A DNA stretch of 63,722 bases, the filler included. It is 13 parts of 13 records of this genome, joined end to end, with 100 filler letters (N's around TTAATTAATTAA, not from the genome) between each part and the next. Parts side by side here need not be neighbours in the genome. Positions count along the whole stretch, not along the records: positions 16,903 to 22,353 come from SRR7504441_10837; 12 more parts are not named here. The stretch is one strand, 5' to 3'. The position numbers and the translations under genes were made by a program. The notes under the pieces are model-generated. The model was not told the origin of the DNA. It made no database searches and worked only from the letters and a program-made list of their open reading frames with translations. Of the stretch, positions 2-60,466 are shown piece by piece; the stretch's first letter is position 1; each line of letters begins with the position of its first letter.

Positions 2-4877
<4,876 letters not shown>

Positions 4878-9664: not shown

Positions 9665-12600
9665 CGCGCCGGTCAGACTTGGCCATGCATGTCAAGTACG
9701 GCAGGATCACACGCAACATCAACACCGATGCCAGGTGGCAATCTAATGATCTGACAAGCTCTTAACATTGTGTGCGCAGATTCATAAGTCGGGCGTTCCA
9801 GTTCTTCGACACTGACAATGAGCGAGTGCTGGACTTGGCCCACTTTGCCACTGGAGTTGCCAAGCTGTCCTCGACTGTGGCCTCGGATCAGGCTGAGCTG
9901 CTCTTCTTCCTGACTGACCTCAACAACGACCAGGTCCTGTCTTTGGGTGAGGTGAGTCAATTCACACTTGAGTTTGTCGAGTTTTTCTGCAAGCTGGTCC
10001 AGAACACGCTGGACGCCGAGCATCAGGCACTGGTCGACTCCGGGTACTCGAGCAAGCACATAATTAACCAGCTGGCCACAGTCCAGGCGTTCCTCGATGA
10101 TATCGACAGCGTGGTTTCAGAGCAGGTGGCTGAGACATTCAAACTGCTCGATCTCAACGAGGACAAGGCTGTGTCGCGCGACGAGTGGATGGGCCAAGTG
10201 AACGCTATGCCCAAGTTCTACAACAAGCTACGCAACATGTGTGTTGCTGTCCTGGCTGAACAGCCAGTCTTCCTGTTTGCCCAACTGGAGGGCCAATCCT
10301 CGATTGCAGCTTTGGAGCAGCTAAAAGGGCTCGGGATTGAAGACAAGTCGGCTCTGGTGCGCCTAGCAGCCGAAGAGGGGCTCACCAGCCATGCTGTGCA
10401 GGTGGTGGTGGATCTGTATCAGCATTTTGGTTCCAAAGACATGAGCTCTCACTTCCCAGGATTGTCTGAGAAGGGCTTCTACAAGGCTATACTAATGGGC
10501 CTGGCCTTGGGCTTCATAGGCCCGGCTGTTGCTGAGCCAGAAGAGCGCTCCAACGCCATCAAAGCCAGTTCTATGTTGCTCGCTGGAATTGATGTCGACA
10601 GTGGATCAAACCTGCTTGCACGGGCATTTGCCCAGTGTGCGGGCACCTCTGTGAAAGCTATCTCCCTGACCCAGTTCGGCAGCTTCTATGCAAAAGTAGC
10701 TTCAGAGATGGACAGCACTGGCCAGCAAACCATGATTGCTAAGATTTTGGGCTGGCAGCAAGGAGCCATAGTTGGCAGACAGCCAGCTCGCCAGGCAGTG
10801 GGCAATGTGACTGAGTGCCAGAAGATGCTAGTTCAGCTGTGGTCGAATGCGCTTCGCTATGGATATAACGAGGCCTCCCTTGCTCAAGGGCTCACACCTA
10901 CAACCATGCATATGAGGATTGCGGCTCTCCGGCACTCAGTGAAGAACAGTGTCGAGAGTCATATGGCCCAGCTGTCCACGGGAGGATTCATACATGGAGA
11001 CAAGGGAGTGTTGTTCAGGGACTATCAGTCTTGTGAAGGTGCCGTGTTTGAACAGCTTGGTCGCGCCTTCTGCAACAGTCTGTCTGGATGTGATAGTCTC
11101 GTAGTCGACACCTCATGCATTGCTGGGGAAGGATGCCCGGAGCTATTTGATGTGGATTTGACCCTGGAGCAGAAAACATGTCTTCAAGAGCTATTCGCCC
11201 ACCATGCTGAGGACAAAGTGCTTCGTGTCGATAGCTTTAACATGTTGCTAGTCGAGGCGTTCAGCTACTCTCTGCTTAGACACCGTACTCTCGACACAGA
11301 GGCTGTTACCTGGCTGCGCGCGCAGATCAGCAGTGGAGCCATGCTTTCAGAACTGGATTTTACCTCGCCGCTATTTTATCGGTCATGGGAATGGTTCGAC
11401 GAAGACGCAAAAGGTTTTGTTGACCTTGCAGACCTCGGCTCCAAGATCAGTGCCATATCCTCCACTGATAATGCCGCCAGCAGCAAGTTTTTGTTCTTCC
11501 TGTCAGACCTTAACGACAATGGCAGCATCTCGGAGGAAGAGATGTTGGCTGTCTACAAGCACTTCTTCGAGCTCTATGGTACTCTATCCAAGAACATTCT
11601 GCAATGCGATGGACAGAGGCTGGTAGAATCGGGGATGCCCTCTTCCGAGCTCGATCAGCGGCTCAAGTATATCGCAGATTCGACGCAAGAGATCGAAGAA
11701 AGCATGTTTTCCGAGATGCTCTCTGCTTTCGAGGTTCTGGATCGTAACCGGGACCGAAGGATAGACTACAACGAATGGTCATCGGCCAGAAGTGAGCTAC
11801 CAAAGGTGATCTTGCTTACCCCGTGTGGCTCAGACTGTGGCAGGTTTACAATAAGCTCCAAGTGATGGTCGAAGGTATGCTGCGCAACACCGAGCGCACA
11901 AGCAGCTCTTGCACCCAGAACCACCCAATCACCATCACCGTGAAGGCTCGACAAATAGTTCTTGGTATGGGATTCTCAGATGAAGACACTGCTACGATTG
12001 TTGACATGTGGATGAACTATTCTGATAGTGGTAGAGTCATGAGCGACCACAGTTTCTACGAACTCCTTGTTGAAGGCTTTGCAAGAGCTTTCTGTAGCTC
12101 TCAGGACCAGAGTCTTCCACACGCGCTACGGTACACATGGACTATTGTGTCGTAATTCATTTTGCCTTTTAGGTATGCAGCAAAAAGTGGGGCACTGACG
12201 GATGGACTTGACTTGTCCATATCCATCTTTTGGCGCACCTTTGAGTTCTTCGACAAACGATCCGACGGGGTATCATCCTGTAGTGCTCCGACTGTCGACC
12301 CCTGAGCTAGTGTGGGCAGGCGCTTGATCTGCAGGCATTTGCAACTGGGATACGGACAGTTGTACTGTCTAGCCCAGAAGAGCGGATGGATTTTATTTTC
12401 TTCCTGATCGATCAAGACAACAACGGATACCTTGACGAGGCAGAAGTGCTCAAGGTTATGAAGGAGTTCAGCGTCCTGTTTGCTCAACTGGCGATTAATG
12501 TCGTGAAGGTCCTCCTCCTGTGTCGCCTAACACTTACCTCTGGTTGCTTACAGACAGAGACTCCCCTGCTTATCAGTCAGGGGGTTTCGTACCCTGCAGT

Positions 12601-15331
12601 GCACTCGATGCTGGATTTCCTAGAGCAGAAGCTGATCGATGCCAATGGCCACGCTGTAAAGCAGTTTGAGGAGACTTTCGGTGCTCTCGACCGCGACCAC
12701 GACAACCAAATTTCTGTCGACGAATGGAACACATGGCAGCACTGTCTCCCGGAGTGCTATGCTCATTTGAAGCTCATGTTTGGCGGAATCATCCGGTAAT
12801 CGCCTAGAACTGAACTCAGAAGCTCAGATTGGTCTGGTACAGGAAGCTCGATGATTCTGTTATCCACTTCGACAAGTTGACTCCCGTGTGCCTCGACACA
12901 CTGGCGGCAGCATACAACCTGTCGCTGTCAGAAGAGGAGCTCGCAAGAGCTGTCGACTTGTTCGATGCGCATTCTGGGCCTACTGGAATGGAGCAGGAGG
13001 ACTTCGATAAATTCCTGCTCGAGGTCCTAGGCTATAGCTTCCTGTGTCGCAGGCGCTCGCCGGCTGCTCTGCGGCACCTTCGAAAGTGTGCCCTTGATGG
13101 CCGCCTTACTGTGCCGGATGACGACGTTGGGTTTTTCAAGCGTGCCTGGAACTACTTCTCCCCTGCAGGGAGGGCATTGTCGCTTGAGGAGTTTGCACGT
13201 GGCTTAGCGCGAACCTGCAGCACCGATGTGGACATGCGTCGACAGTTCCTCTTCTACATGATCTCGACCGACTCAGCTAACATTACCACATCTGTCATGC
13301 GCGAGTTCCTCATGCGGCTGGTGCTGATGCGCGGCGCGATACAAATACAAGTTGTTCATGCCGAGCGGCCGTTCCTGATGCACATGGGGGTCCCGGGGGG
13401 AGCAATAACAAGGCAAACTGCACAGGTGAGCCAGACTGATCGGCGCAGGCTGATTGTGGGGACTGAATAGGTGGCTGAGATGATGCTCTCTGCATCCGAG
13501 CTGGTGGAAGAGCAGGTCGATGACGTCATTCGGCTTCTGGATGCTGATTATGACAATGCTGTCTCCGCAAATGAGTTGAGCCAGGCTGTGGAGCTGCCTG
13601 CGATACTGGCGTTGTTTGATCAGATGCTGGTGGCTGTGCTGCACGATATTCCAAGGGAGCCCAGTCCACTGTTGAGTGGCAACGATGCCCCAGGAAGCGC
13701 GCTGGCACTGGTGGGTCTGGGCCTGTCTCAGAGTGAAATGCTGCGCATCAGCGATCTGTTTGCTGCACACTCCGTGGATGGGCTTATGGACCGCAGGCGA
13801 TTTGATGATATGATTCTGGAAGGTCTAGCATATAGCTTTATTTCCAGGAGCCACGACGACTCCTGCCGGATGTACCTCCGGCTCTGCATCGCCAATGGCA
13901 AGCTACGGCGTGGAGTCGACACCTCCTCGCCTATCTTTTGGCGATCGTTCGAGTACTTTGATGCAGACGGGAACCAGGCCATTACCTTACGAGAGCTCGG
14001 GTCAGGAATGGCGCGTGCCTACAAAGGCGAGCCAGCTGCACGCGCGTCTTATCTGCACTTCATAACGGACATAAATAATAATGGAGAGCTCACGTATGAT
14101 GAAGTCATTGAGTTTTTCCGGTACTTTGCGGAGCTTTTTGCTGCGCTGGGATCCAACACGCTCAGTGTGGAGAGGCCCCACCTGCTCAGACAGGGGGTTG
14201 CACCTGAGGTTCTGGATCGCCAGATAGATAACATGAAGACGCAGCTGCTCTGCTCCGACGCCTATATTCAGGAAACGACAAGGCAGACATTTGCCGACTT
14301 TGACAAGAATAGAGACGCCCGAATTAATCACGACGAATGGGTGAACAATGTGGACAAGCTGCCAAAGCTCTACATGAAGCTCTCCAACATGTTCTCAAGC
14401 ATCATGCAATGCGAAGCTCCGGTGTTTCCTCAGATCGAGCAAGAGCTCGTGAACCATGAATTGATGACTCCAGAGCTGCGAGGCCTCGGGTTGACCCAAC
14501 AGCGGGCCTCGACTGTGCTCGATTTGTGGGAGACATACTCGACATCAAACCAAATGTCGCCAGCTCAACTGAACGCCTGCTTGTGCGAGTGCTTTGCCAG
14601 GCACTTTGTCTCAAGTTTCTCTGCGTGCACAATGGAAGCAGAAGAAGCGCTCATCACCCACCAGTTAGTCACACTGAGGGATGGTCAATGGGCTGAGCTC
14701 CGGGAATGGAGCTGTTCTGGCAGCCTCAGCAAAGGTTTTGACCCGGCGAGCATGGCGCTCCTCGGTCGCATCTGGCAGTTTTTTGATACACACCACGTCC
14801 GGAAATTGGATTTGAGGTCCTTTGGGATTGGGATCTCCAAAATATGTTCATCCAAGTTCACGACCATAGCACAGTTTCTGTTCTTCCTGACGGATACCAG
14901 CGGCACGGGCCTGCTCGGGCAGGATTCGCTCGAGACGTTCACCACTTCCTTGACCAAACTACGGCTGCAGCTCCACCTGAACCTGCTGGAGGTATGTTAT
15001 TGCTTGCTGGTGCCAGTGCTGAGCTATTGGTCAGGTGGCAACAACCGATTTACTAAAGCAGGGCATGGAGCAACATATGGTGCAGCAGGCCACTCAGGTG
15101 CTGAGTGAGCGGTTGAAGAACGTGCAGCAGGTGGCAGAGGAGACTGTAGTAGAAATGTGCAAGCTGTTAGGCCGTGACAATGCAGACTCCATTACATTTG
15201 GAGAGTTTATGCACGAGGGCGCGGTGTTCAGCAGACTGCCGGTAGTGTATCAAGAGATACATCTAATGTGCAAGCATGTATTACGTGACGTGCGAAACGG
15301 TGTTCCAAGCAGTTACGAAATGTACGTATAA
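9665..15331 (+). CDS. Giant multi-EF-hand protein made of tandem NCS/calcineurin-B-like modules; 5'-partial, multi-intron
   Basis: Repeated R.F.FFD.D...(EF)...FLFFL.D.N.NG motifs (DLNNDQVLS, DLNDNGSIS, DQDNNGYLD, DINNNGELT, DRNRDRRID, DKNRDARIN). ORFs 9772, 11823, 12386, 12829, 13471 and 15035 are joined by about 38-50-nt GT-AG introns. Confidence 0.8.
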
Positions 15332-16902: not shown

Positions 16903-19900
16903 GGCGGAGGGCTGCTGCGCTTTTGTATTGAGAAGCACAGATGCGTCTTTTGCCGTCTATGGGGCCTTACACGGGACATCCATTAATCAGGATGGCCGCA
17001 CCGCGACCTTGACCTCTCCAAATGGTCCATCCCAACAGCGTATGCTCCAAGCTGCACTGCACCGTGCGGGCATCTTGCCTCTGCAGGTATGTGTGCTAGA
17101 GGCACACGGTACAGGCACAGCTCTTGGCGATCCTATCGAGGTTGCAGCTCAACGTACTACGTTGAGTACTGATCGGAACTCCGCAGAGGTGCTCGTCACT
17201 GGTGCTGGAAAGAGCATCTTTGGACACCTGGAGGCGTGTGCAGGATCAGCAGGGTTGCTAAAGCTCATTCTGGAATTGAGCCACGCTCAGGCACCACAAA
17301 ACATGCATCTGAAACACCGTAATCCCCACATCGATGTCATAGACTACGATGCACTGTTTCCTGGCTGCATCATCCAGGGTGGATACCGCAAAAAGAATTT
17401 TGGTGGAGTCAGCGCCTTTGGCTTTGGTGGAACCAATGCACATGCTCTGCTCAAAACGCCAACTGGACAGTTGAATACATTGATGTCTAGATTGGACATG
17501 AAGTACAAAAGAGAACCGTTCCCCTGGTGGAGACATCAGGTTTCCAAGAACAAGAATGCCTCGGATGCTAACTTGAGTGCTGGAATTACTGCCTTTGAAT
17601 ACTATGCACCGAATCTCTGCTGCGCAGTCGCTGAGATCGAGGAATGGCATGAATGTACGGGTCGGTACACTCAAGGGAGAGGCCAAGAGCACATAGGCTT
17701 TTGTAGTGACGATGAAGATACGGTATCGATGGCAATGACTGTGTTCGATCGCTTGGTTCAGACGCATACCTTAGATCTCTGTACGATTGGGAGATTGGAG
17801 GTTGGCACGGAGAGCCAAGTTGACCGAGCAAAGTCAATCAAGTCGTTCATCATGGCGTTTTTTGAACCTGAAGGCCTGTTTGACGTGGAAGGCGTTGATA
17901 CATACAATGCGTGCTACGGAGGTACAAATGCACTCTTCAGTACTGTAGGGTGGTTGCAAAGCTCAGCATGGGATGGCAGGCAGGGTGTGGTAATATGTGC
18001 AGATGCAGCTGTGCACCCACAAATAGAGGGGCTGCATACAATTGGAGCATCTGCTATTGCGATGCTTGTCGGCGCCCGAAACGGATTAGTCCTGGAGTCG
18101 AGAAGGGTCTCATTTATCAAGCATGCTTGGGACTTCTACCGTCCAATTGGCTGGCACAACAATGATGCACTTGTGGATATAGACACAGCCAGCCGTCAGT
18201 ATGAAGAGGCACTCCTTTGGTGTGAGCGTCAGTATGCTACCACTCTGGCGACACCAGACTTGCTTTCAGCATTCGACCAAGTCTTGTTCCACTGTAATGC
18301 TCCGTACCATTCGAAGAGGAATTTAAGGCTGATTTGTGAGGATCTGTATGGCAAGATGCCTCGCGAACAGCATGAAACTCTCTATCAACAATATGTAGAA
18401 CCTGGGGTTGCCATCTGTAAGCAAAATGCAACAACTTACACGTGCCCACTATACGCGTGTCTCCTTGCTACGAGTGTGCATTTTGGACCGAATCTGCGAT
18501 CAAAGCGAATTTTGTGTTTTAGCTACGGTTCTGGGTGTGCAGCAAGTATGTTTTCCATCTTTGTTCAAGACATTGCTCGCTATCCCCTCGACGTGTTCTC
18601 ACGATTGGCTTCTCGCAGTTGCAAGTCGGTTTCAGATACACTTAACATGGTAGAATATTTCGAAAATGCACACGGAAGTTTCCCTTTCGAGCCACGACAT
18701 ACTGAAGACAAGTGCTCCGGTACATACTACCTCGACAGACTTGGGGGTGATGGCATCAGGCATTATTCCAAACGACTGGGACAGAATGTCGCTGAGACCA
18801 AATTTGACAAAGGGATTGTTCATATGGAGCTTCTACAGGACTCTGCTCCCTTGGAGCTATTGCATAGTATTAGCGAGAGCTTCCAGGAAGGCCTCATCCA
18901 TATTCTATCCTCTTCTGGTCACGGTCTTAGCTCAGAAGCGTTGACTGAGACCACTACTGCTTCATGTTTAGTTGAATTGATCGCAAAATCATACGCAGTA
19001 ACTGCAGATTCCCTTGCCTTCTCTACTCATACCACTGCAGCAAGTGCTCTTCTGCTGCTGTCTGCTCTCTCAAGTAATTCGATTGATTGTACAAGCACAA
19101 GCCTCCCATCTGCCATTGAACAGTACGCTGATTATATCTGCATGCGCCAGTCTATGCCGAGTGCAGCAACAGGGCCACTTTTGCCAGTAAGGCCAGCTTT
19201 AAACATCTGGCTACCATTTCAAGTGCCTCATATTGTACACATGAGTTTGACTGATGACGATACCACTTCGTTGGCTCCAAGTATGCTGAATTGCAGACAG
19301 ACGCAGGCCATGATCCTACTTGTGGGGAGCTCTCGTCATCCTGCTGGCACGCAAAGCACGGCGCGTCGATTACTGCTCGTGTCAGAAGTCCGCACCAGCG
19401 TCCCAATACTCGCAGTGTTAAGCGGGACAGTTAGTGAGTTTGAAATGCCTGCAATTGTGGCATCAGATTGGCTGGTCTGTACCGCAGATGTCTGCTTTGT
19501 CAGTGAAATCCGCACACGCTTGACCCCAATTAGTTTTGCTGCTGCGGTCGAGCCTGATATTTTAAGTGCTCATCGGCACGCGATGGCAATGGCTGAGTGT
19601 CTGCGCAACGCCCCACAATTGGGTCTACAGCATACACTGACTCTCATGGCCTCGCATTACAGCGCATCACAACATGTCATTCAACAACCACCTTACAGTT
19701 CAGCTGCAATAGAGAAACGCTGTGGCTTCAAGATAGTCTCTGCCAATGACCATTCAGCAAAGACCCTGACTGAATGTGGTCATGCCGGATCGAAACTACG
19801 GCAAATGGGCCGAATGAAGGACCAAGAACAATCGGTGACAGATAAGCCGGTGGATTGTGAGATTCTTCACAGCTCAGCTCACAATACCATACTTCATGCA

Positions 19901-22353
19901 GGAAACGCCTTGTTGGCCACAGTCGACTCACAAGCTGGTCCTTTCGACCTCAAATTTGTCAATGCTGCATGGGAACAGACTGTTTCTTCTTGCATTGTGG
20001 TCTTGGAGTTGAACGACGCTCGCCACTACAATGCCATAGACCTACCGCTTGCCAAGGCCTTAGAGGTGCAGCTTCTGCAGTTGAGAGCATATGCAAGTGC
20101 TGGCGTTGACATCACGGGCGTGGTGTTGCAAGGGAGAGGGGCACATTTCTGCAGCGGCGGCGCGACACAGACAGACGCTGTGATGGCTCAGGCGCTACCT
20201 GGGTCTCTACCGAGCGCATCAGCTACCTACTATGCTTTGAGTTGCTGTCTTGGTGTTATGCGCGAGACGCCATGCCTTGTGGTCTCCAGTGTGCATGGCA
20301 AACTCATTGGTGGTGGGATGGCGACCATGCTTAACACTGACTGGCGGATCTGCTCACATTCTACTAGATTCAACCATGGTAATCTGCCCAGAAATGTGAA
20401 CCCTCTTGCAGGATACAGTTACGGCTTTGGTGCCTTGCTTGGACCATTTCAAGCAGGTAGGCTTTACTTGGAGGACGTTACAATAAGTGGTCGAGAGGCA
20501 CTTCGAATTGGCCTTGTAGATTCACTGGGAAGTAGCAGGTGTCACACTTCCTTGTGTGCACATGCTGCAGTGCATGTATTCGGAAGATTGTCACATCCGA
20601 GTGTAAAAGCAGGCAGTACAATCTCAGCACGGAGAATGCATCAGCAAATGCATGCCGAGAGTGTGCTGCATGCGACTTGCGCTCTCAGAAATATTGTTGG
20701 CACTGCTAAGGTCTACGATCGATATAGGCTCGTGTGTGATAAGGACCTCTCTGTAACTGTTGTGAAGGACCCTATGAGGACTCTGTTGCCCGTGGACGGC
20801 GTGGAGGTGCGCATGAGCGTGTATGGTCTCAACTTCAGAGAGGTGCTCTTCAAGCTCGGCATGGTTCCTATCAAAGACAATACAGTCGGGGTCGAAGGTG
20901 CGGACATAGTGACTAGAGTCGCTGCTGGTATAGACGAGGTGGAGGGAGGGCAGCGCGTCTTTGGTTGGATTGGTTCCGGGTTCGGGACTCACAGCCTGAG
21001 TTCAGGTAAATTCATGTGCAATATGTTGCCAACAACGAGCATGGAAGAGGCATCCAGTGTGTTCACTGGCTGGATCACTTGCAAGCACGCCCTGGGAGAC
21101 CTCTGCGCAAATCTGGCTGTGGGTGACTGTATCACTGTCCATGCTGCCACCGGAAGCGTTGGGATTGCAGCCACAAGCCTGGTCAGGAATCGAGGGGCGC
21201 GAGTCATAGCTACAGCAGGAAATTGCAGGAAGCGGTCCTGGCTATATCAGACTTCGGACGCGCATGTCAGCACAACACGCGACTCTGGTCAATTCAACTC
21301 AGACATAATACACTGGTTTGGCAGTCGTGCCAAACCGATAGCAGTTGTCCTGAATAGTTTGTCTGGCGAGTATATCAGGATTGGCTTCGACATGCTTGCA
21401 TCAGCTGCCCGATTTTGTGAAATAGGAAAACGAGATATCTGGTCCTCTGACAAAGCGCAAATTTGTCGTCCAGACGTGTCTTATCTACCGTTCGACGAGA
21501 GTACCATGATTAATCATCTGATGAAGCTACGTCCAACGCTGGAAGCTGCCAATTCGAGCCTCAATTCTTACACCTGCCCGGTGCAGATTTTTACTTCTGT
21601 CAGTTGCTCTCAGGCTTTCAAGTTCTTGCGCCATGCAGAGCACATTGGTAAGGTGGTGGTCAAGATGCTCGATGTTCGTCTGAACAACAAGGTCGACAAA
21701 TATGCTGTATGCAGCGCAGCGCCAGCAGTTGAGACCCCAGATCTAACTGATTTTGTCTCAGAGCTACGATTAGACAATGCTGCTGCCTGTCGGATGGCAG
21801 TGGTGGCCATGGTGCGTACTCATGTTCACGATCAAGGTTTGAGTAAAGTTGAACTTGACGACCCCTTGCTTGACCATGGAATAGACTCGCTTGGCTCAAC
21901 TGAAGTGGTAAACCTGATTCAACGCGACATTGGCACGTCAATTGATGTACCGTCTACTTTAGTCTTCGACTTTCCAACCATAAACACGATAGGGGACTTC
22001 TTGACTGCTCATTTGGCCGTTGAAGTTCCAGTTTCACCAACAAAAGTGATACATAACGAGTACACTCCGGTGACAAATCGACGGGCTTCTACTTTGATGT
22101 TAAGTGCCCAGGATTCCATATCTCCCGGTGGTTCCAGCTCATCGATCAGCGCATGGCTCGCGCTTTGTCATGCAAATGAAAGTGCAACTAGGGTTCCGAC
22201 TCAGCGTTTTGATATTGGATCTGTCTCTGAGCCCCTGAGTGCTCAGCATGGACACTTCGTACATGGCGCAGAGCTTTTCGATCGCACTTTTTTCCGCATG
22301 GGTGTTGTCGAGGTCGAAGCCACCGATCCTACACATCGCCTCCTACTCGAGAA
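16903..22353 (+). CDS. Modular type I polyketide synthase fragment: KS(C-half)-HMG-CoA synthase-ECH(degenerate)-ECH-ER-ACP-KS(start); partial at both ends
   Basis: KS: EAHGTGTALGDPIE, KSIFGHLE, SAFGFGGTNAH. HMGS: GRLEVGTES, NACYGGT, SYGSG. Crotonase: GAHFCSGG, VHGKLIGGG. ER: GLNFREV, HAATGSVG, HIGKVVV. ACP: GIDSLGS. The next KS begins VPTQRFD...FDRTFF...DPTHRLLLE. One uninterrupted frame. Confidence 0.93.
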
Positions 22354-41294: not shown

Positions 41295-42878
41295 TCACAA
41301 CGTAGGCGCTCGCTCGAGATGTTGCTTCTGGCCAACAAACCAGTCGTGCTCAGTTTCCCCAACCTCGGACGTGAGCCAGCCATGTCCGCACACGTCAGTG
41401 GAACTCATCCGGTATTGCGCGTCTTCGACTAGCATGTGCTGAATCAGGTCGGCGCACCCGCCAGGCAGCTCCTCTTGCTCGAGCTTGAGTTGCTTGAGAC
41501 CGCTGGCAGCCGGTGTGTGCATCGGCCACGGATGCTTAGCACGCAGCATGATGAACATCACCACACCGAGCGACCACACATCAGCCTTCAGGCCATAGTC
41601 CATCGATCCGAGCTCGGGCGCGGTGTAGCCTTTGGTCCCAATCAGCCCGTACTTGTCTTTGGCCGGCATTCCGTTCGAGATTGACATGTCGAAGTCAGAG
41701 AGCAGCAGCGAGGTGGGGTCCTGTGGCTTCTCTAGCAGTACGTTCTCAGGCTTGATATCCCTGTGGATCACGTCAAAGCTGTGCACATGCTGCAGCGCCT
41801 CAGCCAGCCTGACCATCCCCTGCTGAGCCTCAAACTCTGTCAACGGCCCACGCTTCTTAATGTAGTCAAAGAGCTCGCCTCCAGCCGCAAAGTCCATCAC
41901 AATGTAGCACTGGAATGAGCCCGGAGTGAACAACACCTCCTTGAGCGTTACGATGTAGCTGTGGCCCCCGACTGCGCCGTGGATCCGAAACTCGTCTTCC
42001 AGCTTCTTAATCTCCTCGCGGTCAGTCGAATCGCACTCGACCACCTTGACCACCACAGGGCACTTGGCCCCGCCCTTGACCCCGTTGCTGGTGTAGACGT
42101 CGCAGTTCTCGTTACTGCATAGCGCTTTACGAGCGCTGTACTTCTTATCGACCTCGCTCAAGTCAACTGTTGAGACTAGCTGCCCAAGCTGCTCGTCTGT
42201 CAGCAGCTTGGACGCTGCAGCGGCTGCCTCGTTCGACTGTGCCTCCTCCGGGGCGCTCTTGGCGCCCTTGGGCGCTTTGGCCTTGCGCTGGTAGCTTCGT
42301 CTTAGAGCAAACACGGCATAATTCACGTTCGAAAGCTGCTTCCACTTCTTCTTTGCACCAGGCCAGAAGGCGTCACTCAGCGACGGCTGCTCTTTGGAAG
42401 CGATGCCCGTCACAAACTCCGAGCCGATGACTTGCCTGGCGGAGGCGCGCATGGTTTGGTCCGGCTGGAGCATCCAGTGGAGCAGCTCGAGCGCGGCTGC
42501 GGCCTGGCCCTCCAGCTGTGCCTTGTGGGCCAGCCCAAGCCCATCGCACACCCGCTGCTTGTTCTGCTCGGACTCGGATCGAGGGAACGGGCTGCTCCCT
42601 GTGAGCATCACGTACAGCACAACCCCCAGCGACCACACGTCCACGGGGTATCCATACGGCTGGCTCAAGAGCAGCTCCGGCGCCACGTACCCAGCGGTGC
42701 CAACACCAGCCGCTGTCGACTCGGCTGCCGCCACCGTGCTGGCAATCGCGCAGTCAAAGTCGGAGAGTACTGCCGATTCAGGGCTTTCGCGTTGCCGGAG
42801 TAGCACGTTCTCTGGCTTAATATCCCGGTGTATGAACCCGAGGCTGTGCACATGCAGAAGCGCTGAGCCTACGCTCGC
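41295..42878 (-). CDS. Tandem two-domain CAMK-like Ser/Thr kinase, 5'-partial
   Basis: Two copies of HRDIKPENVLL, SDFD, GT.GY.APE and DVWSLGV in one frame. Confidence 0.9.
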   Translation of the reverse strand, partial: ASVGSALLHVHSLGFIHRDIKPENVLLRQRESPESAVLSDFDCAIASTVAAAESTAAGVGTAGYVAPELLLSQPYGYPVDVWSLGVVLYVMLTGSSPFPRSESEQNKQRVCDGLGLAHKAQLEGQAAAALELLHWMLQPDQTMRASARQVIGSEFVTGIASKEQPSLSDAFWPGAKKKWKQLSNVNYAVFALRRSYQRKAKAPKGAKSAPEEAQSNEAAAAASKLLTDEQLGQLVSTVDLSEVDKKYSARKALCSNENCDVYTSNGVKGGAKCPVVVKVVECDSTDREEIKKLEDEFRIHGAVGGHSYIVTLKEVLFTPGSFQCYIVMDFAAGGELFDYIKKRGPLTEFEAQQGMVRLAEALQHVHSFDVIHRDIKPENVLLEKPQDPTSLLLSDFDMSISNGMPAKDKYGLIGTKGYTAPELGSMDYGLKADVWSLGVVMFIMLRAKHPWPMHTPAASGLKQLKLEQEELPGGCADLIQHMLVEDAQYRMSSTDVCGHGWLTSEVGETEHDWFVGQKQHLERAPTL

Positions 42879-49971: not shown

Positions 49972-50178
49972 TTGGCGCGTAGCTAGCACCACGATGATTT
50001 CACTATAGTCAACAATTTACTGCCGGGACTGTGTATTNNNNNNNNNNNNNNNNNNNNNNNNNNNNNNNNNNNNNNNNNNNNTTAATTAATTAANNNNNNN
50101 NNNNNNNNNNNNNNNNNNNNNNNNNNNNNNNNNNNNNTGGTGAGCCCGGGGGCGGATGCGGGCTGACTCGAGCGGCAG

Positions 50179-50526
50179 GTGGTCAGCTGGTACTCGGCGC
50201 CGGTCTGGCCCCACGTGTATGAGGGGCATGCGTACGGATCGGGCGACATCAAGGACATAATACGCGATGGGTTCGTCCCATGTTACGCCAACAGGAAATC
50301 GCGGCTCGACTGCGATTACCTGATCAAGTGGTACTTCGAGGAGAGCGATACCTTCTGGGACAGCCGATTCAGCGAGCAGCGGGTCCAATTCCCATGTCGG
50401 ACCGGCTACTTTCATGCGCGCGGGCCGAGCGGGCAGCATGTCTGGCCAGGGCAGTGCCCGCGGCCATCTGCTGCTGAGATCTTTCGAAACTTGGTGGCCG
50501 CCGGTCACTTTAGCAAAACCTTATGA
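50179..50526 (+). CDS. Terminal exon of an unidentified protein
   Basis: Preceded by a typical short intron (GTGAG...CTGAC...CAG, 50140-50178) and followed by an AT-rich 3' region. No motif recognised. Confidence 0.5.
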   Translation: MVSWYSAPVWPHVYEGHAYGSGDIKDIIRDGFVPCYANRKSRLDCDYLIKWYFEESDTFWDSRFSEQRVQFPCRTGYFHARGPSGQHVWPGQCPRPSAAEIFRNLVAAGHFSKTL

Positions 50527-50863
50527 TTGCTCTTGATCGCGGACGGCCAGCTTAAGGGGCTACTTCCAGCGGGCGGCCCTGGATCCGCACTGTACAATCG
50601 CGGTCATCAGCTCTGCTTTAGACATTTATACTCTAAAGAGCTGAGAGAGACGGATAGGTTTCATCAATGAAATCTAACTTACTTAATACAGTCATGTTGT
50701 ACGAGTACAATGTTAGTACAATGTATCCGATTCCAAACAACTCAATTGCAATCAGCCATGCTATAATTTAGGAGACACAAGCACTAACAAGTCACTAACT
50801 TAATTAATTAAATTACAAATCAGGTGTCAATGACTAGTCAATGACAGCAGCGTCGCTACTGCG

Positions 50864-52968
50864 CTACTGGCCTTGTATCTGCGCGAGAACCGACTGCAGC
50901 TTCTTCATGTGGTCCTTGAGTAGCTGGGCATACCGGTCCTGGTCTGGCGACTTGCATTTGACCCTGTACTCGAGCTCTTCGATATCAAGTGAGTCGGCCA
51001 GCCCGGCCAGCGTGTCCAGCACGGTCCCGGCATAGTTGGCGCTCGACTTGTCGGGCCGCACAAACTGGTATTTCCACAGCCCGCTCTCTTTGTTCATTGC
51101 GAACTCGGACACGCAGGTCGGCTTGCCTGCCGCGAGAGCTCGGCCCAGCCGCCGGTTGGGGCGCACCGTGCATGTCAGCGGTCAGCCGAAGCATGTCCTG
51201 CGCGCCGCAGTCCACTTGCCGTGTGAAATCAATCACGGCGCCCTCGTCGCCCTGCACCGCCGGTTGGCTGGGGGTGGGGGCTGATCCACCTCGAAGGTAA
51301 ACCAGAAGCCTCCGTCCGGTTGAATAGAGCAGAGCAGGTCAATGGTCATCATCACGCCCTGCTTGTACTTGAGCAGCTCGTAGTCTGTGCCCGGCCGGTA
51401 CTCTCTGTTGGGGCAGAAGATGATCCCATCGGTGTGGTGGTGGTACAGGTGCTGCGGGTGGCTGGCTGAGTACATGAAGTGCCCATCGTGTGATGTCACC
51501 TGCCGGCCCTCGCCCTCGGCCGTTCCTGGCTGCCACCTTCTTCATGATCTCGGCCACGTGCTCCTTTGAGTACCATTTCTTCACAATCATCGGGAGCCCG
51601 GGCGGTTCGGTCAGCCCGTTGCTGTTGGCTTGATAGCCCTTGAGCACCCGCTGGTGCAGAGCGTCAAGCCGGCCGCTGAAGTTAAGCCTCATCAAGCTCT
51701 CGTTCCCGAGCGCCAGGATGTCAAACGCCACAAACACCGGACGCGACAGCTTCCTGCCCGAGCTGAGTCGGCCCGGCCCGGCCTGTTGAGGACCTGTTGA
51801 GGACCAGCTCACCGTCGATCACTGTCCCCGCTGGCAGCTGGGCCAGCTCCTGCAACTGACTAAGCCCGTGCATGTCGAAGCAAACCATCCGCCGGTCGAC
51901 CAGCACCGCCATGCCGCCATTGAGCACCACCACCAGGTACCGCATCCCGTCGGTCTTCTCTGAGACCATGTACTCCCTCGTCTGCACCTCCGGCACGTGC
52001 CGCCGCCGGAACGCGACCGGGTTGGCGCCGGGGAACCCACGCATGTCGTCCCCGCCCAGCCGCTTGCAGGTGTTGGCCACCTGCTGGATCAGGCTGGTGT
52101 CGGTCAGCTGCTTGGTGGAGATATTAGTCGAGGCCACCGGCGGGATCAGTCCGAGGTCCTGCGAGAAAAGCAAATACATCAAGTCCTGCTCGACCCTGCT
52201 GCTCTTGCCCAGCTGAGCCAGCCCCGACTGCTTCAGCTCGAGCTCGATCTCGCACAGCTCCCGCTGCTCGCCGTCGGCGCTCTGCTCAGCCACTTGAGTG
52301 AAGTCGGCCTGCCAGCCGAGCTGGCTGTGGCTCCAGCTGGTCCGCTTCTTGGTCCGCTTAGTCTGCCAGTTGGCCGGGGCCGTCTGTTGCTCGTACGGCT
52401 GCGGGGTCTCGCACACGGCCGCGATCCGTATATCGTACCGGCAGGCTGGGAGCATGATGTCGATGCAGTGCCGGGTGTTGGGCGGGCCTTCCTCGCGCAG
52501 CTGGATCTTCTGCTTGACCTCCTGGGCGAACACGCCCTCGGGGCTCTCGACTACCCTCGCCTGGGCCAGATTGTACGCCACGCTCAGGCTGGGTTGCTGG
52601 CTGAACGGCTCGGGCTGCCGCTGCTGGTTGTATACTCGCCCGCGCCGCAGCCGCTCCTGCAGCTGCTGGTAATCATCGGGTGACACTCCCGGCTCAAATC
52701 GGGGGCTGAACTTTTCGCGGTCCTGCAGCGTGAGCACGTACGGCATGGCCCCCGCCGCGTGCGCGCAGAGCCGCTGCCGGTGCCCGTCGGGCCGAGTCAT
52801 GACGAGCAGCCCCAGTCGGACCTCCACCTCCACCTCGCCCTTGGCCTGCCAGCCGGCCAACTCTGGGGCCAACTGGCTGGCCAACTGGCCGATCGCGGCC
52901 TGCAGCGGGTCCCGTGACCGGCCCGGCGGCGGGGGCGGCCGCTGCCGCTTGGCCGGCGGCTCTGCCAT
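50864..52968 (-). CDS. Bifunctional mRNA capping enzyme: CYTH/triphosphate-tunnel RNA triphosphatase + guanylyltransferase
   Basis: TTM motifs EVEVRLG, DIRIA, RTKKRTSW and CEIELEL. GTase motifs FPGANP, EKTDG, IDGELV, FVAFDIL, TDGIIF, LLKYK and OB-fold RPDKSSAN. Four introns of 37-40 nt. Confidence 0.9.
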
Positions 52969-53056
52969 GCTTGCGCTGGGTGCTCCGCTCGCCGTACCTG
53001 CGCAAGCTGCTCAACTTTCCGTTGGCTGGAACAGGCTGCTGTTGGGACCGGTGAGC

Positions 53057-53793
53057 ATGGAGCTGCTCAAGATTGTGGTGCTGGGGGACGGCGGGGTGGG
53101 CAAGACTGCAATCGTCAACGCGCTGGCCGAGCGCCAGTTCGAGCCGGAGTACCGGCCGACCATCGGTGCCGAGTTCATCACGCGGAGCTCGGAGCTGGCC
53201 GGCCGCCGGCTCACGCTGCAGGTGCGATCGCAGCCTGGCCGGCTCACGCTGCGATGCAGGTGTGGGACTCGGCCAGCCAGGAGCGCTTCCAGAGCATGGG
53301 GCTCGCCTTCTGCCGGGGCGCCGACGGCTGCGTGCTGGCGTTCGATCTAACCCAGCCGAGCAGCCTGGCCCGACTGGAGCACTGGAAGGAAGAATTCATC
53401 TACGCCGGCTGCCCCGACGATCCGGATACGTTCCCTTTCGTGGTGATCGGGAACAAGGCGGACGCCCCCGACCGGCGGGTGTCTGAGGCCGAGGCCAAGG
53501 ACTGGTGCGGCCAGATCCCGTATTACGAGACCAGCGCCAAGAGCGGGCAAGGGGTGGAGCCGGCGCTGGAGGCCATCTGCCGACTGGCCCTCAGGCTGCC
53601 GCTCGAGCCAGCTGCCCAGCCTGCTGCCGCTGTGCCGACCGCACCCAAGCCTGCTGCCACCACCGCCAAGATGGGTGCCTGTCGGGCCCTGCATGCTGCT
53701 CTCAGCGCCAAAGGGAAAGACGCCTGTCGGCCTGCAATCCAGGCGAGTCTGGACCAGGACATCGCCCGTGTGGCCAAAGAGTGCGCGCCCTAG
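53057..53793 (+). CDS. Rab7-like small GTPase (divergent)
   Basis: LLKIVVLGDGGVGKT, YRPTIGAEF, intron 53222-53259, WDSASQERFQSMGLAF.RGAD.C, FPFVVIGNKAD and ETSAK. Confidence 0.9.
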
Positions 53794-53957
53794 TAATCAG
53801 TAGTTTTGCAAGTTTAAATAGGGTGCAATAGGTGCAATTACAATTATACATATCGATAGTCGACACGACTGCCTTACATGAAGGGTCTGGACTCTAGTGC
53901 GTGCCCAGCCCGGCGCCCTCGCATCCTCGAGGCGTCTTGTTGATTAGTTACCGAGGG

Positions 53958-56900
53958 CTAAAACCATTCAGCCTGGGCTTTGAGCTCGGCCTCTGACAGC
54001 CAGCTTGCATGCACGCCAAAGGGGATCCGATTAGGCATCTCGATTCGGGCTACCGGCTCCGAACTGAGTGCCGCGGCATCCCAGATGCACAGCTCGGACG
54101 TGCCAATCCCGTCTTGCCCGGCGCCATTACCGTCAAAGATGAAATCGAGGAGATAGCCGTCGTCTTCGGCCGCTGCCTCGCGCTTCGGGACAAATAATGC
54201 CTCGCCGCCGAGCCTTTTATTGCCAAAGTCCACATCACTCACGATTGACTCGGTCTGCAAGTCGAACTTGACAAACCCGCTGTACATCTCGTCCTCGCCG
54301 CGTCGCATCAAGTAAGCCCACCGCGCCCCAGGCTTGCCCGCAAACTCGCGGTTGACTTCGCATCGCTCGGTCAGCAGATCGGCCGCAGCCGGGACCAGCC
54401 CGCCCGAGACCTGCCCGGACTCAAGATCGAGCACGAACTTGTGCAGCTTGGACGGCGGCTCGTCCGGGGTATGGATCGGCACGCTGCTCGGGTACTCGTC
54501 GAACAGCGGCATGTAGAGCACCAGCTTGCCGTCCTCGGTCTCCCAGCCGTTGACACAGTGCCAGTGGAAGCCTGTCCTGCCGGTGTCGAACCACCGCACA
54601 GCAGAAGGGTCGGCGCATGAGCGAGGAATTAGCCCGAACCGGACCGGGAAGCGCTGGTCAAAGTCGTACAGCTTGCCCTGGGTGAGCCCAGCTTGGTTGA
54701 TCCGGAGCGAGTGGTCCACCAGGATGAAGTAGTTCTCCGTGAGGAAGCAATCGTGCAGGAAGGCGGGCGGGGGCGAGCCGAGCTTGACGGGCATCTGATG
54801 CACTTTGAACGAGGCGTGGTCGACCACCCCGTAGGTGCACACCGGCGAGAACATCCCCGAGCCGATGTAGTGCGTCTGGCCAGCCGGCTGGTCGGTCTTG
54901 TAGTGGGCTGAGAACCGGTCAACTTGCCCGTCTAAATCGTCAAACTCGCCGCTTTGGACCACGCCAGTATTCGGATCTATTTTAATCTGGAACGGTGGGC
55001 AAAGCTCCATCACAGCGTACATTCTCCCCTCGGCATACCAGGTGGAGGTGGCCGTGTGCATCTTGCGATTATCGGCCAGCAGTGGCAGCGCGCCCGCCCG
55101 CATCCGCAAGGCCTGCAACCCGAGCTTGCGCGCCACTGGGATCCCTCCCAACGTCAGGTCTCCAAACGAGGCAAACAGCTCGCGCCCAGCGGCTTCATTC
55201 GCCACAAACCGCGGCGATCGGAGCCACGTGCAGCTGTACTTGAGCTGCGCAGGGTCCTCGCCCTTGAACCGCACGCAATGGATCATGGCGTCGCCGTCGT
55301 ACATGCTGAAAACAACAGGCGTTAGATCATACCAGGCACGGAAGCACTTACTGCTGCTTTCCCGACGGTTCGAAGCGCTGATTGGTGCCGTTCCGTACAA
55401 ACATGCCGTGCAGGTCGCCGGGAATGTCGCCGCTGAGCAGCTTGAGCTGGCTGTGCTGCGCTTCGGCTTTGATAGGCAGCATGTTGCCCCGGCGATACGG
55501 GTTGTCTTGATTGTGCACAGTGGTATCCCCGCAGGCCCCAGTCATGACTGCCACCAGCCGCTCCGCTTGCTCGACCGACGGCGGAGCCGAGCAGCCGATG
55601 TGCGACGGGCACATGAACGGGGACCTGACCACGCACTTCTGGACTCCTTCATACAGCAAGTAGTTACGGACGGCGCCTATCCCCGACTGGACGGCGGCGA
55701 GGTCCTCACCAGGGAAGGCTCCCCAGCTGCCACACTCAAACTGGAAGCAGCTCCCGGTCCAAGTGTTGAGCGCCACGGTCCCGTACTTGAGCTCGGCCAC
55801 CGCCGCCTCCACCTGCTCGGCCGGGCAGCTCGGGTGGGCCACCAGCGAGGCCGAGAGTGAGCCGAGCACCGACCCGTTCACAAACTCGGGCGCTGTCGAG
55901 AGGAAATCGCCAGGCAGAGACACCACCGCGAGCACCGGAGCAAACGCCTCATTCTGGAGCGCGTACGGGTGGCCCGGGCTGCCGAGCGGGCCGCTGGCCT
56001 GGTCGTAATCGATCTGGATGAGCAGCGCGGGCAGGTTAGGTCCGAACTTTGGGTGTGCTGGGCCGGTGGGGACGAGCGACTCGATCTGGCGAGAGGTCGG
56101 ATGCTCCTGCTGGAACCGGCGGTAGCGGGCCGCAGTGCCCGGGTAGTACGGGACGGCAGTCGGCCGCTGGGAGATGACTTGGGTGAGTTTGTCCAGAAAT
56201 TGCTGCTTCTGTGCCCAATTGTCAGAGAGCACGAGCAGCTTGGGCGCGTTGCAGTTGCAGCTGTTATTCTGCAGGAAAGCCGTGGCCAGGTGCCGGGCGT
56301 GGTGATCGAGCTCGGCCTCGCTGAAGACGGCCGGGGCGATCAGCCACGGGGTGATGCACCCGAGTTCGCTGGTGATCGGCTTCTGGAGCACCGGGCAGCT
56401 GGCAGCCTTGTTGGCCGCCTGCTCCTCGCCACAGCCCCACACGATCGCGTCGTGCGTGGCGGTGCCCCCGGTGATGTGCACGTGCTGCACCAGCCGGTGC
56501 TGCACCAGGGCCTTGCCCTCGGCCGCCCCGCCGATGAACGAGTGCAGGTAGCCCTCGCGGATCAGCGGCCCAAACAGGTACTCAACCCACTTGTGGTTGT
56601 ACTCGCGCACGGGGTTGTGCTTGAGCGCCACCACGGCCCCGTCCACGAACATGGTGTACAGCACGTCGCACATGGTCAGGAACCCCTGGTTGCCCGCCCC
56701 GAGCACCGCCGACACCCGCCCGAGCGCCACTCCGCCGAGGTGGTTGCGCCGGGCGTAAAACTTGCCCTGTCGCGCGGCCTCGGCCAGCCAAAGCTCGACC
56801 TGCCACTCCCTCTGGGGCCCGGCGGCGTCGGCCCGGCTCCGGGGGAACACTTTGACCCTCTGGCTGTCCAGCGGCTCGCCCTGGGGCGGGGCGCCGTCGC

Positions 56901-57228
56901 GCATTATCCCGGCCAGCGACTCCATCAGCCCCTCGAGGTCCCGGGTCATGATCCGGGTGTTGAGCAGCATCTCGATCGCCAGCAGTGGCCCGGCCTTGTC
57001 CGGGTCCAGCCCCATCGCCGTCAGCGAGTCGGCAGCCCAAGCCCGGTGGTCGGCCGCCATCATCAAGTCGCGCATCTCGCTCAGCAGCCCGAGCCGCTCC
57101 GCCAACGGCAGCGCCGCCCACCGGCCCTTGCGGCCAGCCAGCCGCTCGATCGCCGCCTCCAGCTCCGAGCCGCCCGAGCGCTCCCCGGGTGCCGGGCCGT
57201 CCGGGTCGGCAGAGCAGGTCGCGCCCAT
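53958..57228 (-). CDS. Aldehyde dehydrogenase - carotenoid/stilbenoid cleavage dioxygenase fusion (about 1074 aa, one intron 55306-55351)
   Basis: ALDH: VLGAGNQ, ITGGTATHD, TSELG and NCNAPK. In the same frame it runs into the CCD start NPYRRGNMLP...GDIPGDLHGMFVRNG.N. Intron GTAAGT...CTAAC...TTTTCAG restores HMYDGDAMIH. The four Fe-ligand His are in SAHYK, FLHDC, HWHCVNGWE and PFGVHASW. Confidence 0.9.
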
Positions 57229-57341
57229 ACAGCAGCTCTATGTGTCGCTCGGGCGTGCCGGCTGTGACATCTAACGGAATTCGGCTCATCGAGCAGCTCC
57301 CAGTGGGCGGATGGCGGAGGGTGTCGATGGTGTGTAGCACC

Positions 57342-57817
57342 ATGGACCTGCTGATAGATTCAGATTGCGGATTCGACGACATGCTCGCCGTGTGCATCGT
57401 CCTTGCTTCGCGCAGAGCGGTGCGTTTAAGAGGTATTACCACCGTGCATGGGATGACCACTCCGGGGCTCGGTGCCACCACAATGCGGCCCAAACCCCTC
57501 AAAAGCTATTGAGGAACGATTCAGACCTACTGCTAAAAGGCGAAGGGACAGTTTGCTGCCTTTATGATCCAGTTGCTGCATGCTATCTATTGGACCCAAC
57601 TGCATTCGAGTCAGAGCGCCTCGACATTGAGGTCCGCCCTGAGAATGGGGCTACAGAGATCGCCCTTGACAACAGCGCGAGGTCTGTCTGTGTGACGTTG
57701 CCAACCAGCTTCAAGGAGCCTTTCGGATACCGTCATATGCTTGAAAGGCTCATAACATCAGGGGCCTCGCAAGATGGTGCAGTGGATAATGACCGCGGCT
57801 GCTGCAGTTGGGTCTAA
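57342..57817 (+). pseudogene. Inosine/uridine-preferring nucleoside hydrolase remnant (N- and C-terminal parts only, out of frame)
   Basis: IDSDCGFDDMLA...GITTVHG stops at 57512. LYDPVAACYLLDP follows immediately in another frame. The central part of the fold is absent. Confidence 0.6.
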
Positions 57818-58239
57818 TCAACCAAAGCCGCCATAATCGATTCAATTTTGAAAGTCACAAGCCAAACCACCAAGGTGATGTTCAGAACACAAAATGATGA
57901 TGTTCAAGACATTGGTGCGATACATGGGCTGTTGTGCCTTCACCTTGAGTTCAAACCGAAAGACGGCTACATGGCGTTTAAAAATCGCGGCCCGATTGTG
58001 TATTAGACCCGACACCATCGAGTCTTTGGACAGTGGGCCGTGTATTAAACCCGACCGGATCCCATGCCGGATCCCGCACCGATGCGGCCTCGGGAGGCCA
58101 GCCGGGCCGCTGAGCGGCTGCGGAACTGTGTAATCTATATGTAATCTAATGTTATAATTATCAGTCAAGCGGCTATCTAGTGACTGGTTCTGGAACGAAA
58201 GCTGGCAAGATCCTTGTTGGGTGCTGGTCACGTTTGTTG

Positions 58240-59422
58240 TTATTGGTCGTCGTCGTCGTCTTTGGACAGGAACCACATGTTAGCCATCCACTTCTCTCCA
58301 GCGAGCACCTGAGCCCCGCAGTGCATCGAGTTCCAGTGTAACACCTGCTCGCCCGGCCCGCCCAACCGGTCCAAGTTCATATTGTACCAGAACACAGCGT
58401 CCCCTGCCCACCGGTCAGGCTGAGCCCGCCCGCAGCCATACCCTTACGGGGCGGCACCACCACGCCGCCGAGCCGGGTGCACTGCTCGGTCGGCTGGCAG
58501 GCCATCTCTAGATCCTCCCAGTCCTGCATCCGCATCCGGCCGGCCTTCGGGTGGTCGGCCCCCGGGAAGGCCAGCTGTCCGCCCACGGCCGGCTGGTTCA
58601 GGAAGAGCGCGAGTGTGGCCAGCCGGATTGGACCGCCCGAGTCAATCGCGTCTGGCGAGCTGTCGTGGTGGCAGCTGTAGTGCCCGCCCACCGGGTACCG
58701 GAGCACCTGGCCCGCCACACACTGTATATACTGCACAGTGCAGTATGGCGCACCTGGAGCTGCTCGAGGTGGCCGCCCAGACCCTCGCTGAACACACGCG
58801 CGCGCTCCTCCAAGAACGAGGTGGCCGCGGAGTCGTACCCGAGCCAACGCTGCGCACTGTGCCGAGTCTTGAGCTCCGGCCGACTCCTCTCGAGCCATCG
58901 CACGTACTGGGCCAAGTCGATCCGCTCGGCCACCAGCCGCTCCAGAGTGAGTGCGGTCCCCGCAGGCAGCTTATACCGGTCCAGGAAGAGCTGGTGCCGC
59001 CCCCGGTGGTTGTGCATCTCCAGCTCGGCCTGCCGCCCGTTAGATCCGTCCGTTGGGCCAGCCACCGAGAGCAGCTCCGCCAGCTCGGCCCCGCTGAGCG
59101 CCCCGTCCCTATCCGCGTCGTACGCCCCGAACAGCCGGGCCATCCGGCGGCTGGCTGGGGGCAGCTTCTGGACCGGCTCCTCCCCGTTCACCTCGCTCGC
59201 GAACATCCCGCCCGTCCGGTTTGCCGCGGCTACAATCGCGTCGGCCTCGTCTTCGCTCAAAAACTGAGACACCAGGAAGATCGGCGGGTCGGTCGCCAAG
59301 GTGGTGATGCTCCGCGGGTGGCCGGTGCTGTTGAGTGTCCGTTGGTGCCCCGGTCGGACCGTTGGGCAGCTCTGCAAGCTGGAGCCCGACGCGGCGGCCA
59401 GCAACAGCGGCCACAGGTGCAT
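58240..59422 (-). CDS. Prolyl 4-hydroxylase with inserted EF-hand (P4HTM-like), signal peptide
   Basis: PPIFLVSQFLSEDEAD, EF-hand DADRDGALSGAE, EQLQ|VLRY..GGHYSCHHDS, FLN....GG..AFP, AVFWYN and SMHC..V..GEKWMANMW. Two introns. Confidence 0.88.
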
Positions 59423-59602
59423 GCCACCGTTTGTCCGTTACAGATCACGTACCATCATCGAATCATGTATTGTGTATGTTATGTTATATGTTATGTTATG
59501 TATTGTGTAAGATGTGTAATGGCTGATATCGATGGGGGGCTATCAATCTAGCTATCGACCAAGCCTCTCACATACTCTAGCAGACCACTCCTAGTAGACC
59601 GA

Positions 59603-60312: not shown

Positions 60313-60466
60313 CTGCCCCGCCCTCGGCCCCCCCCCCCCCCCCCCCCCCCCCNNNNNNNNNNNNNNNNNNNNNNNNNNNNNNNNNNNNNNNNNNNNTTAA
60401 TTAATTAANNNNNNNNNNNNNNNNNNNNNNNNNNNNNNNNNNNNNNNNNNNNGTACTATGGCACGA

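Follow-up and report, generated by a model that had tools for sequence, protein, structure and literature searches.

A polyketide synthase fragment, likely from a relative of Telonema, with an embedded eukaryote-type HMG synthase and a degenerate ECH1: a candidate module for β-methyl branching

To our knowledge, a single enzyme lineage (PksG/CurD) accounts for the known β-branching of polyketides, and it needs five separate proteins. The canonical cassette built around a 3-hydroxy-3-methylglutaryl synthase (HMGS or HCS) consists of five discrete proteins, including a donor acyl carrier protein (ACP) and the ketosynthase (KS) KS0 (PMC10006238, PMC11522927; statements on cited work refer throughout to the parts of each source that were available), and the chemistry of HMGS and of the crotonases ECH1 and ECH2 is established for such bacterial cassettes (PMC10006238, PMC11522927, PMC7501309). 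In protists, two polyketide synthases (PKSs) of Emiliania huxleyi have three modules each with two enoyl-CoA hydratase (ECH) domains and an HCS, for which β-methyl addition as in bacillaene was proposed, and Euglena gracilis megasynthases are listed with HCS/ECH (O'Neill 2020, PMC7073580); the available part of that paper holds no phylogeny, active-site check or assay for the E. huxleyi modules. Here, we describe a fragment of a type I modular PKS at positions 16903–22353 of a stretch of 63 722 nucleotides (the window), in which an HMGS of eukaryote type is embedded between a KS and a series of crotonase units and which lacks an acyltransferase (AT). By a modest degree we lean to the view that the embedded HMGS, a dehydratase from outside the fragment, the third crotonase unit and an enoyl reductase (ER) would together yield a saturated β-methyl branch, so that a β-methyl, reduced product is predicted.

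As in the bacillaene (AcpK/PksF/G/H/I), virginiamycin M (VirC/D/E) and curacin (CurB–F) systems, HMGS and crotonase folds occur here at an AT-less KS–ACP module, and the ER follows the last crotonase as in CurF. Unlike in these systems, the HMGS is embedded and lies outside the PksG clade, the ECH1 is degenerate and the ACP has no Trp flag. In all likelihood the module works like an HCS cassette, but it does not belong to the PksG family, since its HMGS clade, its ECH1 and its ACP position all depart from that family. The E. huxleyi PKSs, with their HCS and two ECHs per module, precede the embedded cassette reported here (PMC7073580; compared by description only) and bear out what an earlier note on this DNA, made from the letters alone, had said of HCS domains embedded in algal PKSs; they differ in that the host of our contig is probably a heterotrophic telonemid and that its ECH1 is dead. 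The solved structures closest to the HMGS are human HMGCS1/2 and Brassica HMGS (205–215 bits), with which it shares the Glu/Cys/His triad, whereas the embedded clade is a sister group and not a descendant of the mevalonate HMGCS, separate with 96–100% support in the Shimodaira–Hasegawa-like approximate likelihood-ratio test (SH-aLRT) and altered in its GN motif. Bacterial PKSs of the order KS-AT-DH-ER-KR-ACP-ECH-ECH-HMGS (Pseudomonas sp. Q1, Dyella, Symploca, Rivularia and metagenome-assembled genomes of Nitrospirales and Acidobacteriota) carry an HMGS of the same clade and a homologous ECH pair; they differ from the contig in having a cis-AT, a terminal HMGS, an intact ECH1 and only two crotonases. 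No description of these bacterial PKSs was found in the literature searched, from which subscription journals were mostly absent, and the available part of Shelest et al. 2015 (PMC4661987) does not mention HMG, crotonase or ECH. PMC12190008 was ruled out as a source because HCS there stands for high-content screening.

Artificial N44-TTAATTAATTAA-N44 spacers separate the 13 short contigs of which the stretch is made. Such spacers flank contig 16903–22353 on either side, so that its neighbours in the stretch are not its neighbours in the genome and give no gene context. The contig (5451 bp, open at both ends) is spanned by one frame of 1816 stop-free codons, the remaining two forward frames containing 84 and 85 stops, and the frame encodes in order a KS, the HMGS, two degenerate crotonase units, an intact crotonase, an ER, an ACP and a further KS (Table 1). 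The earlier note had reported a single frame that passes from KS to HMGS without an AT; both points hold, with only a 31-residue linker in between, and its positions for the HMGS, crotonase, ER and ACP were correct to within a few codons. The linker contains a motif, YKREPFPWW, that we take to resemble a post-AT linker motif. The order agrees with that of a trans-AT module, a KS being followed by processing domains and the ACP with an AT nowhere between. A contig from run X1 (898 nt, five differences, matching 16903–17738) bridges the KS–HMGS junction, although X1 may itself be the source sample, and the same KS-then-HMGS order recurs in relatives P0002–P0004, L001, L003 and L005–L007; misassembly at this junction, which the earlier note had named as a possible refutation, is therefore unlikely. 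Among the listed run pieces none covers the entire contig, and 18723–19086 is left uncovered by the pieces of the four runs X1–X4, which is evidence neither way.

The HMGS matches HMG_CoA_synt_N (residues 226–391, 1e-50) and HMG_CoA_synt_C (residues 492–623, 9e-22) of Pfam and has a complete catalytic Glu/Cys/His triad. It scores 284.5 bits against the eukaryotic model TIGR01833, slightly below the cut-off of 286.2, and 105 bits against the prokaryotic model; among PDB entries, CurD and PksG reach 42 and 36 bits. Trees of 104, 45 and 21 rows, all from quick searches (the latter two drawn from 374 HMGS domains, the 45-row tree being a quick mixture tree), place it in a PKS-associated clade with SH-aLRT values of 99, 96 and 100, respectively. 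This clade adjoins the primary eukaryotic HMGCS and is distant from PksG, which was represented by L169 (checked, CurD-like) and plasmid loci; long branches are flagged at the root. Labels in the 104-row tree were guessed, and six 'primary' rows fall inside the clade and two 'embedded' rows (P0006) outside it. The approximately unbiased (AU) test rejects union of the HMGS with PksG (p = 2.5e-9) and likewise a grouping in which embedded enzymes of protists join primary HMGCS while the bacterial embedded ones stay outside (p = 0.009), and the HMGS does not nest among primary eukaryotic HMGCS. The HMGS is thus of eukaryote type, as the earlier note had held, is not of the PksG family and represents a separate PKS-associated lineage. 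Where the same note had a recruited primary-metabolism HMGS, these comparisons do not support any recent recruitment from the mevalonate pathway of the host, and the enzyme groups with bacterial PKS-embedded ones. Members of the clade include Rhodomonas salina, Aureococcus anophagefferens, Cymbomonas tetramitiformis and Blastocystis sp. and, among bacteria, Pseudomonas sp. Q1, Dyella, Symploca, Rivularia, Ca. Kentrum and several metagenome-assembled genomes. Two single-chromosome bacterial genomes with an embedded HMGS (G050 and G051) contain one FabF-like KS and one HMGS each; a KS0 is thus not evident there, which fits an acetyl-CoA donor. Neither a phylogeny nor an assay of a PKS-embedded eukaryote-type HMGS was found in the literature searched.

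Stand-alone HMGS genes occur on short high-GC contigs (L017, L024, L030, L044, L049, L069 and P0147), three of which (L017, L024 and P0147) fall within the PKS-associated clade; they are possible trans-acting branching enzymes of protists. In P0112 (Cymbomonas), P0121 and P0124, two HMGS domains stand in tandem in one chain, possibly as an internal homodimer.

Downstream of the HMGS, residues 634–935 have no Pfam match, and the ESM Atlas returned no match for the units found there. Comparison by hhalign with the intact crotonases of relatives resolves the region into two degenerate crotonase units (Table 1), with reversed controls at 0.5% or less. Of the crotonases, Pfam confirms the intact one (unit 3) alone, and where one degenerate stretch of an ECH-ECH pair had been seen there are two units, with unit 3 separate from both. 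Unit 1 has lost a helix along with its oxyanion loop and catalytic Glu, and both the Glu and the loop are gone in all seven window-type sequences. In the intact ECH1 domains of relatives a Glu aligns to the PksH-type catalytic Glu in nine of nine cases, as it does in five of five references; the equivalent of PksH Glu137 is present in 0/7 window-type copies of unit 1 and is Asn in unit 3. There is no recognizable dehydratase on the contig, and the cassette is therefore not complete in cis, contrary to its first description; with the active site of unit 1 lost, the module would likely methyl-branch only with help from an outside domain.

Unit 3 has an intact fold in which both hydratase Glu sites are substituted (Ala1140 and Asn1160) and His1158 and His1256 are present. 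By sequence alignment only, and in a region rich in gaps, its ExxxH motif coincides with the His of three PksI-type proteins. The predicted structure (pLDDT 76) gave fold-search matches with Z scores of 23–25 and root-mean-square deviations of 2.3–3.2 over ∼200–230 aligned residues. Unit 3 is likely to be a decarboxylase, with ExxxH as in PksI-type enzymes.

Four protist relatives (P0003, P0005, P0108 and P0253) contain six crotonase units downstream of HMGS, in which ECH1-type and ECH2-type alternate; catalytic motifs are clear in the first and last units only, and unit c matches weakly (36%). Six tandem units suffice for two single-chain pseudo-trimers. PksH and PksI are homotrimers, with Glu137 and His230, respectively, as catalytic residues (PMC7501309), and since they are homotrimeric a triplication may have supplied all protomers in one chain. 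The window type would then be a reduced form of an (ECH1-ECH2)x3 array.

The best PDB match of the ER is the ER of CurF (2.9e-33), and in Pfam it matches ADH_zinc_N weakly, below the cut-off. The active-site Cys motif of the first KS, which lies beyond the contig start, is visible as DTACSS in the relative P0002. We take the position of the Trp flag to be six residues after the ACP Ser, where the contig has Val1668. The flag is predictive of acceptor ACPs, with known exceptions (PMC10006238).

The KS-HMGS-ECH..-ACP layout is shared by protist relatives P0002–P0005, P0108, P0253, L001 and L005–L007, and across the PKS-associated clade HMGS co-occurs with at least two crotonases and often an ER. 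ECH and HMGS lie in one or abutting frames in 11 of the 15 bacterial-genome loci (L081–L095), the bacterial members being mostly single-module cis-AT PKSs with ECH-ECH-HMGS at the end. Single-module PKSs of this ending (L081–L090, L095 and P0009–P0020) are scattered over bacterial phyla, and some add a thioesterase, an acyltransferase, which in P0118 is of carnitine type, or a nonribosomal peptide synthetase part.

In the mechanism that we propose, HMGS would likely add an acetate unit to an ACP-bound β-keto chain, taking the acetyl group from acetyl-CoA rather than from a donor ACP. Water would be removed by a dehydratase outside the fragment, perhaps a FadB-type hydratase domain in an adjoining module, as in a close relative; unit 3 would then likely decarboxylate and the ER reduce, leaving a saturated β-methyl branch. 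Units 1 and 2 may serve as structural pseudo-subunits, a remnant of the tandem array in which one ancestral chain would have provided every protomer of two crotonase trimers. The relative in question is represented by two sets of proteins: P0270/P0018, with a degenerate KS, a crotonase with both Glu motifs, an ACP, a KS and the N-terminal half of an HMGS, and P0026, with the C-terminal half of an HMGS, units 1, 2 and 3 and an ACP. Members of both clusters sit on contigs that agree in length (17045 and 9493), a sign that a single gene may be interrupted here by an intron. The P0270/P0018 crotonase matches the hydratase domain of FadB/FadJ (1.8e-30) and is likely to be the replacement dehydratase.

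Several observations weigh against this mechanism or parts of it. For the dehydratase, the FadB-type domain is not on contig 16903–22353, in the relative it sits upstream of the HMGS module, contrary to colinear order, and the P0018–P0026 join is deduced rather than read from DNA. For unit 3, the fold search recovered generic crotonases, with neither PksI nor CurF among the 50 matches listed, and a His described as universal among branching decarboxylases is missing from the bacterial and six-unit ECH2-type domains (13 of 13 ECH1-motif proteins), because of which the decarboxylase label is not secure for the lineage as a whole. The AlphaFold model of units 1–3 (pLDDT 41, nine sequences) is too poor to judge a pseudo-trimer. 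As regards HMGS and its donor, the Asn of the customary GN motif near the C-terminus is altered across the clade, the Trp flag occurs in none of 27 ACP motifs of 15 clade proteins, and the remaining three of the five bacterial genomes of the clade have two to six FabF-like matches at 28–35% identity, in a search that discriminates poorly, true KS0 lying at 35–45%.

If unit 3 were bifunctional, no outside dehydratase would be needed: after the decay of ECH1 it would have gained two His residues, come to dehydrate as well as decarboxylate HMG-ACP, and left the cassette self-sufficient. We regard this as unlikely, though the best of the alternatives. Of the 31 proteins carrying the motif, 14 have FxHGN, and 11 of these have ExxxH as well; the two mark the window type and are missing from all 13 proteins that keep the ECH1 motif, and the death of unit 1 throughout the seven window-type relatives agrees with this reading. 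The 14 proteins are, however, close kin, several from one cluster, and the pattern therefore counts as one evolutionary event; moreover, units 1 and 3 occur together in only five of them, the second His is missing from Telonema P0168 and the close relative offers a FadB-type hydratase instead.

Less likely again, the module may halt after the aldol step and pass on a 3-hydroxy-3-carboxymethyl (HMG-like) branch, its crotonases and ER decaying or serving another intermediate. The degenerate ECH1 agrees with this, some relatives (P0181, P0112, L091 and P0027) have an HMGS without a crotonase in the same module, and carboxymethyl branches are known from bongkrekic acid (PMC12560621). Against this reading, unit 3 and the ER are full length with their motifs kept, at 43–50% identity to relatives, and the frame is open over all 1816 codons.

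The contig is likely to derive from a marine protist related to Telonema, which accords with the protist host first proposed. Among the proteins compared, the ER is nearest to Telonema subtile P0168 (43% identity, 253 bits, against ∼105 bits for the best bacterial-type sequence), with which unit 3 shares 50% identity; a haptophyte host, the initial guess, was dropped once T. subtile emerged as the nearest named relative. The dinoflagellate spliced leader, sought by a motif that we presume to be correct, was not found in the loci examined, and no report of a Telonema PKS was found in the literature searched. There is a small chance that the contig is instead chimeric or entered the bin as a contaminant, bacterial or otherwise. 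It is a composition outlier, with the lowest GC content of the 13 contigs (0.50), a third-codon-position GC of 0.48 against 0.56–0.88 and tetranucleotide correlations of at most 0.30 with the others, it has no intron, and bacteria possess the same HMGS clade. Nevertheless, its nearest named relatives are protists (Telonema, Rhodomonas and Aureococcus), and the bacterial members are laid out differently (cis-AT, C-terminal HMGS) at ∼39% identity compared with 50–62%. Runs X1, X2 and X4 carry near-identical pieces of both this contig and the high-GC contig 50138–60352, and X3 of this contig only, all at low depth, which weakly suggests that the two belong to one genome, whereas the k-mer composition, a check suggested earlier, sets the contig apart. 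Least probable of all is that HMGS, ECH1, ECH2 and ER form a complete cassette in cis, the HMGS having come from the mevalonate pathway of the host, for although the HMGS is of eukaryote type and the domains stand in that order, unit 1 has lost its active-site elements and the trees and AU test place the HMGS elsewhere.

A wider proposal, which we put forward as doubtful, is that this is a second, independently evolved β-branching system of protists and scattered bacteria, with an in-line mevalonate-type HMGS that uses acetyl-CoA without donor ACP or KS0, crotonases that act as single-chain pseudo-oligomers, loss of ECH1 in telonemids and a single His-bearing crotonase for both dehydration and decarboxylation. 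Four features turned up nowhere in the literature searched and are apparently new: an HMGS lineage of its own, a possible acetyl-CoA donor with an apparent lack of donor ACP and KS0, arrays of pseudo-crotonases and the loss of ECH1. If the proposal is true, a second in-line lineage, perhaps fed by acetyl-CoA, would mean convergent evolution of β-branching chemistry and would offer PKS engineering a methyl-branching module that is compact and portable; expression of small single-gene bacterial members, such as those of Dyella jejuensis and Pseudomonas sp. Q1, would allow it to be tested. Methyl branches that protist polyketides derive from acetate depend on HCS activity (PMC5725682), for which embedded HMGS modules are candidates, and telonemids would be pointed to as overlooked polyketide producers.

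Table 1. Features of the stretch, with positions counted along its whole length
Feature	Position	Strand	Basis
Type I modular PKS fragment, 1816 residues, both ends missing	16904..22351	+	Single open frame
KS, C-terminal half; His motifs HGTGT (17105) and KSIFGH (17210); Cys upstream of contig start	16904..17473	+	Pfam KS_C, residues 19–136 (3e-30)
Linker of 31 residues without AT, holding YKREPFPWW	17474..17566	+	Translation; bridged by X1 contig
HMGS, eukaryote type, PKS-associated clade; Glu303, Cys337 and His463 present	17567..18778	+	Pfam, TIGR, PDB, trees
Crotonase unit 1, degenerate ECH1-dehydratase orthologue	18803..19213	+	hhalign 97.3% against intact ECH1 of relatives; alignment
Crotonase unit 2, degenerate ECH2-type copy	19214..19708	+	hhalign 98.2%; hmmsearch 4e-6
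Crotonase unit 3, intact fold, oxyanion motifs kept, likely decarboxylase	19955..20689	+	Pfam ECH_1, residues 1029–1208 (2e-12)
ER, full length; HAATGSVG nucleotide-binding motif, EIGKRD motif	20756..21679	+	PDB and relatives
ACP, GIDSL with Ser1662	21797..22039	+	Pfam PP-binding, residues 1649–1700 (1e-7)
Next KS, beginning only, truncated by contig end	22091..22351	+	Pfam KS_N, residues 1740–1816
Large protein, HEAT/vitellogenin-N-like part and Cys-rich end	94-4877	+	Profile scan
Long multi-EF-hand gene	9766-15108	+	Profile scan
Protein with two kinase domains	41295-42878	-	Profile scan
mRNA triphosphatase, fungal/viral type (PF02940), fused to guanylyltransferase domain	51721-53010	-	Three homologues only, 28–29%
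Aldehyde dehydrogenase-like part into RPE65/carotenoid oxygenase domain, two overlapping frames; possible fusion gene	53958-57237	-	Profile scan

Among the HMGS relatives, nine marine metagenome loci (L002–L009 and L011; 47–55% identity) have in-frame TAA, TAG and TGA codons within conserved PKS domains. At conserved sites TAA or TAG stands opposite Gln in 16 of 22 cases and TGA opposite Arg, the commonest residue there, in five of 12, while Trp remains TGG in 31 of 33, His and Pro are almost free of C-to-T change and the loci differ from one another at many synonymous positions; frame changes also occur in the KS regions. This looks like a code in which UAR is read as Gln and UGA as Arg, rather than decay or editing. 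In Amoebophrya, UGA is read as Trp (PMC6394959).

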